Positions 2,506-51,800 are shown, counted from the first letter of the stretch. The stretch: 64,000 bases of DNA from Amoebidium appalachense (GCA_963693365.1 CAVNZM010000011.1:6157921-6221920); one strand, 5' to 3'. Notes: generated from the sequence alone by a model not told the origin. Made by a program: numbers and translations.

Positions 2506-5500
2506 ATGGCATCCACCGAAGGCACAAAAACTGTGCTTCTGAAGCTGGCTGACGAATACGTCAGTAATTTGCTGCGACAGGTGCCCCCCCCCCCCCCCCC
2601 CCCTCCCCCCCCCTCCCCCCCCCCCCCCTTTCTCCATACCTCCCCCCCCCCCCCCCCCCTTCCCCTTTCTCCTCCCCCTTCCCCCCCTCCCCCCCCCCCC
2701 GCCCCTGCCCCGCTTCTTCGAATCTTTTTGCTGCTGACCAACGTAAGCTGGGATTTGAAAGTGTCATGAACTACCCGCTTTTGGGCGCCAGCCCAGATGT
2801 TACTGCTACTTCTCGTCTGCGATATGATGCACTGTGTGCTAGGCATGCAACTAAGCGCCTGGATCTTTCTAGACTCACAAACCTCCACGTGAACGCAGAC
2901 ACACACGCTCGCACACACACACACATACACACGTATGTACACACACACACACACACACACACACACACACACACACACACACACACACACACACACAAGC
3001 ACAAACACACACACACACACACACACACACACACACACACACACACGAACACATGCATGCACACACGTGCACACACACACACACACACATACTTGCATAG
3101 GCCAAGTACACAGACGCACACCCACATACCCACACACCCACACACACACATATCGCGTGCACACAAGTGCACATTCAAGATAAACACCGTAATGCATGCC
3201 CGCGCGCACACACACGACACACACGCAATCGCGTGTGCGCGCACGGGCCTGTACCACCACACCACAGCGTCGTTCACTAAAAATACACAATTTTTCTGCC
3301 CCCTCCCCGTGCCTCCCCCCTCCCCCCTCCCCCCTCCTCCCCTCCGGGCCCTTATACCCCTTCGCCCCGCAGAATGGACACGCTCCTGAGTACGCGTTAC
3401 TGTCCCCCCCACCCTCCCCTCCCCCCTCCCCCCTCCCCTACCACCCTCCAACCCACTCCTACCTCATCTACCTCTCGTATCCTTCCTTTGCACGGCACTA
3501 CGGCAGCACCCTATCTTATTCGGATCCTTTATTCCACCAAGGCTACCCACCCTTGCTAAAACCCGTCTTCGACCCCCCCCCTCCCCCCCCCCCTCCCTCT
3601 CCCCCTTCCCTCCCTCCCCCCCCCTTCCTTCCCCCCCCAAACGCGGGCTAGGGGGTCGAAACTCAGACGCAATTGATGACTTGGGCCCTCCCTGAGGATG
3701 GGCTCTGCTTATGACGCATACTGTGCGCATGGCTGATGTTGCATACTTGAATGTTTGCCTTTGCATGTGTCCTTCGTGTATGAGTACTTCGTACCATGTT
3801 CCGCATTCAAACCCCCCCAGTCTCCTTTCAGAGGTGTCCTTTCAGGACAGACCACTGTGTGGAGACCGCTTTACTTCCATGCAACCGGGCATGGTTGCTC
3901 TGTGTCGTGCATCTGTAAGTACATACGCATTTTCTGCTGCACTGCATACATTGCACACACATATTCACCGTTTTGCTCACCTTGCTTGCATAAGCAACCC
4001 TGCTCGTCTTTGATCAAGACGGGTTGACCCTCCCAAGTTCAGTTGATGCTGCTGTCTGAGTTGGAGAGTCGTATATACGCGGGCTAAGGGGTCGAAACTC
4101 AGACGCAATTGATGACTTGGGCCCTCCCTGAGGATGGGCTCTGCTTATGACGCATACTGTGCGCATGGCTGATGTTGCATACTTGAATGTTTGCCTTTGC
4201 ATGTGTCCTTCGTGTATGCGTACTTCGTACCGTGTTCCGCATTCAAACCCCCTTCTTTATGTATGGCTTGCATTCTGCATCGTGTTACCCGTTTGTTCTT
4301 GTGTACTTCGTACTTTTTGACGCATTCAAACCCCTCCCCCCCCCTCTCCTAGTGGTTGGCGCATTCGTCGGAAAAACAGGAGTTTATAAGTTCGTTCCTG
4401 CCGTGGTTGGTTTTTTGTCTTGTTTTTTTTTTTGTTTTGGTCTTATGATGTCTATGCATTCATCCCCCACCCCCACCTCCCTGCCCCCTCCCCCTCCCCC
4501 CGCCGTCAAAGCCGTTCTATCGCGCGCACCCACACGCGTGCGTGCACATACTTACACACACATACGCGTGCGCGTGCACACACACACACACACACACACA
4601 CATACACACACACACAGATTTTCCAGTGTCGTTCCATGTGGAAGGTTGTCGAAGATGCATCTGAGCCACACGACTTGGAGTGGGTGGAGTATGAAGACAT
4701 TGACTGGGATAAGGTGTTGCAGGGTACGTCTCCTAATGTTAACGGTTGATAGTAATTGTGGTGGGGTGGGGCATCTAGTTAGGTTTACCTTGACTGGGAT
4801 AAGGTTCTGCAGGGTCTGTTCTTTAAAGTTGACGAATCGAAGTACTTTCGGGTGTGGTGGGGTGTTTAATTAAGTTTACCTCTTGTATATTTTGGGTTTG
4901 TGCTGTGGCATTGCATGGGAGCCAAATACGTCCCGTTTAGGGGGCAAAAAAAAGTCGCGCGGAGGGGGGGGACCTTTCCATGGCAGGTGTGATGAGTTTG
5001 ATTTGGTTAAAGGTTTTTGTGTGTGGGCTCCACGTGTTCACAGGTACTTTGAATGTGTATGCTTTTCTCTCTTGTTTTCAATTCTTTCTCTTCTTTCTTT
5101 CCCTGGGGGTTTGAACATATCAGCACCAGGGGGAGGGAGGGGGGGAGGAGGAGGGGAGGGAGAATTGGCGACTTGATTATCGAGGGTGCATATCTTGTTT
5201 TTTGTTTCTTCCTTTCCGTTTCCTTTTTTTTTTTTTTTTTTGGAGGGGAGGGGGGAGGGGGGTTGGGGGGGAGGGGGGCAGGCACCGGGGGGGGGGGGGG
5301 GGGGGGGGGGTTGCCCGCTGTGGTTGCAATAATGCAAGATGGGTGAATTTTTGCAACCGAAGAACAGCACAAGAATCGACACAGCAGTCTGCCTTTTCTA
5401 TGTCTATACCTATGCCTATACTTACATATACATCTAGACCTACACCTACACCTTTATTATACCTATACATATGAATTCACCTACACCTATGACTTCACCC

Positions 5501-48800: not shown

Positions 48801-51800
48801 CTGGTTGTAGTTGAAGTACACGGTATGATGGAAAAGAAAATGCAGGCAAGAACGAAAGTTGTTATGCTAAGTAATCACGTGTGTGTGTGGTGTGCGTGTG
48901 TCAGTGGGGGGGTTTGAATGCGTCAAAAAGTATGAAGTACACAAGAACAAACGGATAACACGATGCAGAATGCAAGCCATACATAAAGAGTATGCATAAT
49001 AAGCAGAGCCCATCCTCAGGGGGGGGGCACGTCATCCACAGTACCCGAGTTTCGACCTATTCACCTCGTTAACGAAACCCAACTCAGATACTGTTCCACT
49101 TGAACATGGGTAGGTCACCCATCTTGATAGAGGAATGCACAACCCGAAAATGCATGCATGTACAACACACGCCAACAATTAACAAAGGGGAAAAAGAGAA
49201 AAAAAAGAAAAGAAAAAAAGAAAAAAAAGGGCAAGAGTTGAAGACAAAGACAATATATTAGCCGGGGGGTAAAAGAACTCGCCCAACGTGGGGCTCGAAC
49301 CCACGACCGCGAGATTAAGAGTCTCGCGCTCTACCGACTGAGCTAGCCGGGCTGTGGAAACTTTGGCCCGTTCCAACTACAGCGAAAAAAACGTAATAAG
49401 TTGACACAGGTTTACTCGCGAATAGAGCACAACTACTGTATATGGAAGGTTTCGCAACAAAAAAAAATTGCAACCTACGCTTCTTGTGTTCCCAAAGGAA
49501 GTAAGGCATACTCGGAAAAAAACAAGGTGAGATATTGCAGAGAGAGCTCAATCGTCGGAGTAACAACTGAGAAAGGGCTGCAAGATGAAGCCCACCAAGA
49601 ACTTACACCCAAGGATGTGCTAAAAGGGAAAAAAGAAGACCGGGGAATAGAATTGAAACAACCAAAAACCACACCCGAAAATGAACAGAGTAAAGAGCAA
49701 GCAGCAACAACAACAAAACAAAACAAAAAAAAAATCGCCCGATGCGAGACTTGAACTCGCGACCCTGGGATTAAAAGTCCCATGCTCTACCGACTGAGCT
49801 AACCGGGCTCAGATATTTTCGCTAGGCATCGTCAAATCATAATCCAGAACGGAAGAATTGATTTAAGGTCACCGAAACAGTCCCAAGAATACCATTACCT
49901 CGACGTTAGGAATCGGAAAGAACAAAACAACAACGAGAAAGAACCACCATTCGAACAAACCGGGGGGGGGGGGGGGGGGGGGGGGGGGGGGGGGGGAAGG
50001 AATGCATCAACAGGTATATACGGCTATAGAAACAGAGACTACTGGTTATAAGGCAAAACAAAAGATACCATAGCCAAAACAAAAACAAACACAAAAAAAG
50101 CACCCATGTGCCAGGCAGAAATTAAATAGCTAAGAAGAGCCCATCGTCAGCGGGATTCCTATGCCTCTACAAAACAACGGGTTTCGATTCTTCGACCTCG
50201 CCCTAAAAACGCTGGGTTACTCAAGCAGCAGCAATCCAAAAACGCACCACCAGGAGGGACAGGGGTGGGTGAGCAAGTGCGGAGGAGGAGGAAACGCGGG
50301 GGGAGGGGGGGGGGGGGGGGGGGGGGGGGGGGGGTTTGAATGCGTCAAAAAGTACGAAGTACACAAGAACAAACGGATAACACGATGCAGAATGCAAGCC
50401 ATACATAAAGAGTATGCATAATAAGCAGAGCCCATCCTCAGGGGGGGCCCACGTCATCCACAGTACCCGAGTTTCGACCTATTCCCCTCGTTAACGAAAC
50501 CCAACTCAGATACTGTTTCACTTGGACAGGGGGGGGGGGGGGGGGGGGGGGGTTTGAATGCGGAACACAGTACGAAGTATGCATACACGATGAGAAGCAT
50601 GGTGCAGGACACATGCAAAGGCCAAAATTCAAGTATGCAACATCAGCCATGCGCACAGTATGCGTCATAAGCAGAGCCCATCCTCAGGGAGGGCCCAAGT
50701 CATCAATTGCGTCTGAGTTTCGACCCCTTAGCCCGCGTATATACGACGCTCCAACTCAGACAGCAGCATCAACTGAACTTGGGTGGGTCAACCCGTCTTG
50801 ATCAAAGACGAGCAGGGTTGCTTATGCAAGCAAGGTGAGCAAAACGGTGAAGATGTGTGTGCAAACTAATGGGGGGGGGGGGGTCAAAAGGGGTTACTGG
50901 CAGAGCACGAATTACACATTCAAATAGCATATTTTGCAAGCACAACGGAGTATGCACCGCTGGGGGGAGGGGGGGGGGACGGGAGAGGGAGGGGGGAGGG
51001 GAGGGGGGGGGGGGGGGGGGGGGGGGGGGGGATTGCACACACCCAAACCCTGGCGACGGTAGGTGGTCGAAACACCAAGTGTCATCAGATAGGCAGCCCA
51101 CCTATCACCGAGCTCGAAGGAGAGTCCGAGAATGTCTGAATCCTGTTGTGGCCCCAAAAGAAATCGTGTCACTTAAATATTTAAAATATAAAAATGACAG
51201 ATATAGTTTTGCGTGTGTAATAAATGGCCCCGGTGTGGGCCCTATATAAAAGAGCCTAGATGGTGATTTTGTGAAAAAGATGCCGATATAAACTTTTTCA
51301 GCTGCAATGCAACAGCGTGAAACGATTGCAATATTACGTGTTGCTCGCAATCATCTCAAACTAATTCAGTAAGCGGAAGACTAATAATAATAGCATACCC
51401 GCTGCTGTGGTATTCTTGTATCCCTTCCCAAGATCAACCTTATCACGATTTGCGACCGATTTGTCAGCATATATGCATTTGCGGTAATCCTCATCCCCCC
51501 CTCTTCCCCCTCCCCCCAACATAAACACCAAAAGAATCAAAATACAAACACCCCCATTACCAGCATCACCACCACCGACGACCTTTCCCCACCCCTCCTG
51601 CCGCCCCGCCCACTCCCCATTCCCACTACATCCTCCCCCCTGCCCTCTTCAGTGCCCAGCACACACTCGTGCATGTGCGCGCCCACGCATGCACGTGCAA
51701 GCGGACGTGCACGCACCCACGCACACACACGCACGCACACACATACGCACACACACACGTGCACGCACACAGACGCGCGCGCACACACCCGCACACACAC

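Follow-up and report, generated by a model that had tools for sequence, protein, structure and literature searches.

Repeat copies and their host genes

We analyzed a 64,000-nucleotide (nt) stretch of the Amoebidium appalachense genome (GCA_963693365.1 CAVNZM010000011.1:6157921-6221920; below, the window), which carries a family of short, non-coding repeats bordered by runs of C. The repeats are hosted by five genes. Pfam identified four of these as TTL, an LRR gene, YOD1/OTU1, and an ArfGAP gene, and the exons of the fifth, NAA60, match P0001, an Amoebidium protein in EukProt, with a last exon at 44700-44688 that completes the gene. All five carry copies in sense orientation.

A preliminary description of the window, made from the sequence alone, had counted about 15 copies in two subfamilies, A and B. 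Self-search and family hidden Markov models (HMMs) found a copy at every position it gave, for a total of 17 monomers, with three in 3641-4330 and two each in 9347-9938 and 50334-50870. At least three older copies lie beyond these 17, at 31048-31165 (+), 49997-50260 (-), and 57092-57129 (+). When the same HMMs were run on the reversed window, one gave a single match at E 8.9 and the other gave none, so the copies are not chance matches. The 20 copies tabulated, and one weaker piece, are as follows; blocks, helices, and cuts refer to the hammerhead fold described below.

3641-3811, + strand: 5'-truncated A copy, upstream partial tandem of the next copy (resembling a pseudo-long terminal repeat, pLTR), 98% identical to the 3' part of 3819-4247
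3819-4247, + strand: A monomer of the longest class, 429 nt, its 5' end deeply covered by unitigs
4254-4330, + strand: 5'-truncated B copy (self-search, HMM)
9347-9491, + strand: 5'-truncated B copy between C26 and C17 (HMM)
9509-9938, + strand: near full-length A copy in a TTL intron, complete hammerhead fold, predicted cut after 9738
18954-19008, - strand: old 3' fragment in an LRR-gene intron (HMM E 0.041)
19732-19832, - strand: old B-type copy (HMM)
19956-20042, - strand: 5'-truncated A copy (HMM)
31048-31165, + strand: old A-like copy in a YOD1 intron (HMM E 8.7e-5)
40443-40499, + strand: 5'-truncated B copy in the last YOD1 intron (HMM)
44154-44219, - strand: B fragment past the NAA60 stop, with a 16-base unique flank plus C-run repeated on both sides
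45063-45172, - strand: old B-type copy in the last NAA60 intron (HMM)
45643-45731, - strand: old B-type copy, with C44 linking it to the following copy (HMM)
45776-45862, - strand: 5'-truncated A copy (HMM)
48502-48649, - strand: 5'-truncated A copy between C24 and C44 (HMM)
48913-49128, - strand: longest of the window's B copies, with the whole hammerhead fold and a predicted cut after 49081; its 5' boundary is uncertain
49997-50260, - strand: diverged copy of a third subfamily, G and C blocks kept, helix I broken, likely decayed
50335-50528, - strand: B copy with S, G, and C blocks, truncated inside the region of the upstream helix II strand
50553-50870, - strand: A copy, complete hammerhead fold, predicted cut after 50753
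57092-57129, + strand: old 3' fragment in the ArfGAP gene, weak (HMM E 3.5 and by eye)
59935-59962: weak B-like piece between genes (HMM E 0.027)

Both subfamilies were recovered with a common 3' end, and the copy at 49997-50260 adds a third to them. Lengths range from 38 to 430 nt (up to 430 nt for A and 216 nt for B). All 20 tabulated copies have the fixed 3' end and a variable 5' end, and truncation is confined to the 5' side. The statement that every copy keeps its 3' end thus holds for the tabulated copies, and fails for the weak piece at 59935-59962, which is without it. The preliminary description had named equal truncation at both ends, terminal inverted repeats, or long terminal repeats (LTRs) as signs against a retroposon; neither the first in the window copies nor the others in self-comparison of the longest copies was found. 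A miniature inverted-repeat transposable element or a solo LTR would also be short, non-coding, and high in copy number. In view of the one-sided truncation and the missing terminal inverted repeats or LTR-type ends, such an origin is refuted for the window copies and hardly credible for the family. Heavily decayed repeat-like pieces also occur between C-runs at 47300-48100 (-) and 50885-50960 (-), with HMM E values of 0.007 to 7, outside the 20.

The family is large, as thousands of unitigs fall on a 581-base stretch of the repeat (5422, 4983, and 6836 in three DNA runs, figures that are not copy numbers). Run X16 yielded one A contig and one B contig, which we do not take as evidence of a second species. 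The B contig, of 776 bases, reaches ~630 bases further 5' than position 4111, which hints that B is longer than any copy within the window. The A monomer at 3819-4247 showed no 5' loose end among the unitigs listed and is probably the full non-autonomous unit. Exact and gapped patterns of the repeat were unmatched in metagenome contigs and viral contigs.

C-tracts and orientation

The preliminary description had placed a C-run directly after the 3' end, and this was borne out: at least 8 of the next 12 bases are C in 19 of the 20 tabulated copies. The 5' side is C-rich as well, with at least 8 Cs in 12 bases at 14 of 20 5' ends, compared to 5.0% of background positions. With the five inner tandem junctions excluded, 10 of 15 outer 5' ends are C-rich, and three of the five C-poor ones have a long C-run within ~30 bases. 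Unitig flanks, which represent copies from across the genome, agree with the flanks in the window. In run X8, loose ends 5' of truncated copies contained poly(C) in 17, 19, and 28 contigs at positions 4112, 4116, and 4122, and in run X1 the corresponding loose ends were C-rich. Loose ends behind the 3' ends were poly(C) in 122 and 77 contigs.

Because the 5' flanks are also C-rich, an added poly(C) tail is unneeded. The simplest reading of these flanks is that the element inserts into existing C-tracts and that the C-run is mainly target; of the two options first offered, a poly(C) tail or homing into poly(C)/poly(G), they support homing. A fixed 3' end followed by up to 44 Cs, with variable 5' ends, could also be produced by an element like a short interspersed nuclear element, mobilized by a long interspersed nuclear element and given an untemplated poly(C) tail instead of poly(A). 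We consider this quite improbable. Such a tail would not account for the C-rich 5' side or for the 136 of 162 merged C/G tracts that hold no copy; neither a tRNA-like head bearing Pol III boxes nor a Pol III head of another kind was found, ARAGORN and Rfam giving no tRNA match inside any copy; and the hammerhead fold matches the ends of Naiad elements, as described below.

The suggestion that the repeat is a source of the homopolymer load of this genome was not upheld, as only 26 of the 162 merged tracts and 777 of their 4905 bases (~16%) touch a copy. Across the whole window, C/G runs of at least 10 bases number 181, versus 37 A/T runs. In many places (e.g., at 6514, 9939, and 40520), a C-run passes directly into an A-run of the same strand.

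Sense orientation, another feature first described from the sequence, was confirmed in all 20 tabulated copies relative to the gene containing or just preceding them. The accompanying statement that none is intergenic was not confirmed, since the 44154 copy is located ~470 bases beyond the stop codon of NAA60 (44688), with tRNA-Lys genes on either side, and the piece at 59935-59962 lies between genes. Copy-free C-tracts in the five genes are themselves biased, with 81 sense and 28 antisense. We modeled insertion into randomly chosen tracts, with the element always facing the C strand. For 15 sites, the probability that all are sense is then 0.04 (per gene) or 0.012 (pooled), versus 3e-5 for a coin. 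The copies are thus sense largely because intronic C-tracts are predominantly on the sense strand, and the bias of the repeat is mostly inherited from that of the tracts. A small extra sense bias may come on top of it.

Sense orientation would also be expected of intron-hosted noncoding RNA genes, for example snoRNA-like ones, or of introner-like units propagated as DNA. Every copy is sense, almost all of them sit in introns, and subfamily A contains UGAUGA- and CUGA-like words. Such an origin is nevertheless very improbable: no Rfam family matched at cut-off or with a credible E value (at the gathering and E-value thresholds only tRNAs and chance-level matches appeared), most copies are 3' fragments, their ends do not coincide with intron ends, and one copy sits among tRNA genes outside the host gene.

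These tRNA-Lys genes form an array of ten on one strand (43185-49808, -), nine CTT and one TTT. Seven are within one NAA60 intron, and three are past the NAA60 stop. Copies of the repeat and of its older relatives are most concentrated within the array and in its surroundings.

A predicted hammerhead core

Subfamilies A and B both contain the conserved blocks of a hammerhead ribozyme, which the preliminary description had not listed. The blocks occur in the order S (the GUU site), G (GAAA), and C (CUGAnGA). We ran a descriptor, written after seeing the sequence, in all six block orders on both strands. It matched only the five copies that are long enough, all in the order S-G-C, and this order was matched by 0 of 20000 dinucleotide shuffles of A and 1 of 20000 of B. 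The canonical, type I orders CGS, GSC, and SCG gave no match, nor did any Rfam hammerhead family. In the A monomer at 3819-4247, the parts are placed as follows.

4026-4030, + strand: extra upstream strand, predicted to form helix II with 4089-4093 (5 Watson-Crick pairs in A, 6 in B)
4053-4066, + strand: block S, with a helix III strand, the GUU site (predicted cut after 4062), and a helix I strand
4089-4105, + strand: block G, with a helix II strand, GAAA, and a helix III strand
4124-4135, + strand: block C, with a helix I strand and CUGAnGA

Reading 5' to 3', the order is therefore helix II strand, S, G, C, and the predicted cut after GUU is ~170-200 nt from the 3' end. All five long copies have CUGAnGA, GAAA, and an NUH site with the A15.1-U16.1 pair; the n of CUGAnGA is G in both A and B, and the third subfamily has C there. 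For A9508 and B50334, the homologous blocks form helix III with pair probabilities of 0.87-1.0. Counting differences away from contig ends, variants of at least 1% fall at six places across 4010-4175, none of them in the core. The sense strand folds better than the antisense strand. The global fold of whole monomers was no better than that of shuffles (z -0.74 and -1.05).

The unusual part of this fold is helix II. We rejected a helix II placed directly after CUGAnGA, where only 2 pairs form before a G-G mismatch and covariation is unremarkable (reached by 76 of 500 shuffles). A strand located 34-35 bases 5' of the cut site is fully complementary to the bases that precede GAAA, and with this upstream strand helices I, II, and III have 17 of 17 pairs in both A and B. 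Each of the three helices shows one two-sided change between the two related lineages, covariation that is no more than suggestive. Two alternative pairings exist for the strand that follows CUGAnGA, one with the bases before helix I and one with the extra strand. With this layout, the rearranged hammerhead is predicted to cut itself.

A probable relation to Penelope-like retroelements

The fixed 3' end, 5' truncation, and C-tract flanks support the initial proposal of a non-autonomous, target-primed retroposon. More specifically, the repeat is probably a non-autonomous derivative of a Penelope-like element (PLE) of the Naiad/Chlamys type, mobilized by the enzymes of a partner.

Chlamys PLEs insert at (C)n and (CA)n, are truncated at the 5' end, form pLTRs, have obscured target-site duplications (TSDs), and include non-autonomous families (PMC8557442). 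With the latter, for example MRC1 of Chlamydomonas, the repeat shares the (C)n preference, 5' truncation, and partial and head-to-tail tandems; obscured TSDs and the lack of a canonical hammerhead are likewise common to both (PMC8557442). Thus (C)n targeting and 5' truncation are already known for the Naiad/Chlamys clade, and most of the sense bias, like most of the poly(C) "tail," is explained by known (C)n targeting. The repeat and the Chlamys elements differ in host: that of the repeat is an ichthyosporean, and neither "Sphaeroforma" nor "ichthyospor" occurs in the supplement of PMC8557442.

The tandems fit the same pattern. The copies at 3641-3811 and 3819-4247 meet at a C7 joint, and both are without a 15-16 nt segment found in the other five of seven A copies. 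Judged from this sequence, 3641-4247 is a partial tandem, or pLTR, as in PLEs. The remaining joined pairs combine A with B, or young with old copies, and three of the four join A to B. We infer that such mixed pairs are copies that landed in the C-run beside an earlier copy.

The fold has its closest likeness in Naiad elements. We judged by eye 47 supplement stretches around two GAAA-containing words (PMC8557442). Six of these, each the 3' end of a Naiad consensus, have an upstream helix II strand followed by S, G, and C, with 6 pairs in helix I, 5-13 in helix III, and 6 with the upstream helix II partner; three of the six consensi are near-identical entries. Another observation is that Naiad_Ovul, one of the six, bears the authors' label "HHR_half_core" (PMC8557442). 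Naiads differ from the repeat in being animal, autonomous elements that prefer (TA)n. Their hammerheads are called non-canonical, and the rearranged fold does not appear in the portions of the text covered here (PMC8557442).

Type-SGC hammerheads (HRIMA-1 and variants; PMC10085705) have in common with the repeat the S-G-C order, all core nucleotides, the U after CUGAnGA, the G-C pair at the base of helix II, and a possible helix joining the sides of helices I and II. However, helix II of type SGC, with at least 3 pairs, directly follows CUGAnGA, where the repeat has only 2 pairs; the S-to-G linker is 0-8 nt, versus 22-25 nt in the repeat; and position 7 is U in the type-SGC descriptor and G in the repeat (PMC10085705). 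In that study type SGC came from environmental sequence only (PMC10085705), whereas the Amoebidium fold sits in a eukaryotic genomic repeat. The core of the repeat may resemble type SGC in its working, yet we do not class it as type SGC.

Animal non-LTR retrozymes, likewise a few hundred bases long, are non-coding, carry hammerheads, and depend on PLEs (PMC7761336; bioRxiv 10.64898/2026.07.22.740005). Unlike the repeat, which is dispersed, intronic, and bound to C-tracts, they bear type I hammerheads, form tandem arrays, and are reported to be excluded from introns (PMC7761336; bioRxiv 10.64898/2026.07.22.740005). Their circular cycle, described for animals (PMC7761336), could in principle operate here: tandems would be cut at the hammerheads, and a circle containing the C-run would be copied by a PLE reverse transcriptase, with priming at that run, to give monomers and 1.4-mers. 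The longest A copies begin beside a C-run and reach 243 nt 5' of the predicted cut, and 3641-4247 is a 1.4-mer with a C7 joint and a shared deletion, as such a cycle would produce. We still think it unlikely that the repeat is a retrozyme of this kind, given that most copies are dispersed, truncated monomers and not long arrays, that A is joined to B in three of the other four tandems, which re-insertion explains, and that known animal retrozymes bear type I hammerheads (PMC7761336), none of which matched in the repeat.

For a non-autonomous PLE derivative, we propose the following cycle. A copy would be transcribed, probably by read-through of the host intron, and its RNA would carry the flanking Cs on the 3' side. 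The GIY-YIG endonuclease of the partner would nick the G strand of a (C)n/(G)n tract, and the G-rich 3' end so released would pair with the Cs of the RNA and prime reverse transcription. Priming by pairing at the Cs would fix both the 3' end and the way in which a copy is oriented to the tract. An early stop or a back-jump of synthesis could then give 5' truncations and partial tandems, and new copies could also land in C-runs adjoining old ones. The copied RNA would be uncut or re-joined, because inserted copies extend past the predicted cut.

Several observations weigh against this assignment. The preliminary description had suggested a search for a partner encoding a reverse transcriptase; none of the 139 window frames scanned (123 out of 164 candidates plus 16 picked by hand), nor the element itself, contained a reverse transcriptase or GIY-YIG open reading frame (ORF). 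A TSD is suggestive at only 1 of 15 sites. That site is 44154-44219, where the flank repeat resembles a TSD; a third copy of the flank unit sits further upstream, so an older tandem is possible. Inverted 5' copies and 30-40 bp tail extensions, both common in PLEs, were absent from all 15 insertion sites. No copy of the 20 starts at the predicted cut, and unitig depth shows no step there. The rearranged fold was unseen in Chlamys among the 47 supplement stretches of PMC8557442, a file in which line breaks hide some cases, so (C)n targeting and the fold are matched by different branches of the clade. As for the fold itself, the descriptor was designed after the fact, ~3% of shuffles per lineage have a 5-bp upstream partner by chance alone, and the covariation comes from two related lineages with 3 distinct rows and is reached by 20 of 500 shuffles. 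The count of C-rich 5' flanks is somewhat inflated by 5' boundaries that fall on the element's own Cs, and the sense bias somewhat exceeds that expected from the tracts (P 0.01-0.04).

The literature searched, which did not extend to subscription papers, figures, and repeat libraries, contained no description of the split-core S-G-C hammerhead. It also gave nothing relevant on hammerheads in Amoebidium or on Penelope elements in ichthyosporeans. The Amoebidium genome has been reported as about half transposons, and "Penelope," "PLE," and "ribozyme" are absent from two text supplements of that study (PMC11244446). Our analysis adds the occurrence of the predicted split-core hammerhead outside animals and in a family that targets (C)n. 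If the predicted cutting is true, the 110-nt fold would be an easily assayed hammerhead with helix II from a separate strand, a layout outside the six block orders of the 2023 scheme (PMC10085705), and would explain why Naiad and Chlamys elements were scored as without hammerheads. An ichthyosporean host would push the association of hammerheads and PLEs back before animals and would point to an undescribed (C)n-targeting PLE family. The introns of TTL and NAA60 carry sense-strand predicted ribozyme folds in pre-mRNA, which makes a testable puzzle. A bolder proposal, which we put forward with considerable doubt, is that the split-core hammerhead is an active ancestral trait of PLEs with an N-terminal endonuclease, predating animals. 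It would make circular RNAs from intron read-through, with oligo-C primed by nicked poly(G) DNA in the way that telomerase-like PLEs use telomeric overhangs, and recopying of the oligo-C would lengthen C-tracts.

The window contains a few other features. Partial duplications of exons recur in its genes, lying in introns directly after the true exon (7960-8495, 11430-11510, 14420-14470, 16870-16800, and 25990-26340), and three derive from one TTL exon. A GC-rich ORF of 225 codons at 687-1364 (+) has no Pfam family at cut-off and no homolog found; by eye it looks like a possible tyrosine-recombinase fragment. The gene at 23927-27900 (+), whose first ORF has 280 codons, has no Pfam match, and its WFTPP..DLDIAS stretch may resemble phage-type adenine methylases. 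Finally, an intron of YOD1 holds a tandem array at 38560-39950 (+), with a unit of ~53 bases that contains the telomere-like word CCCTAA.

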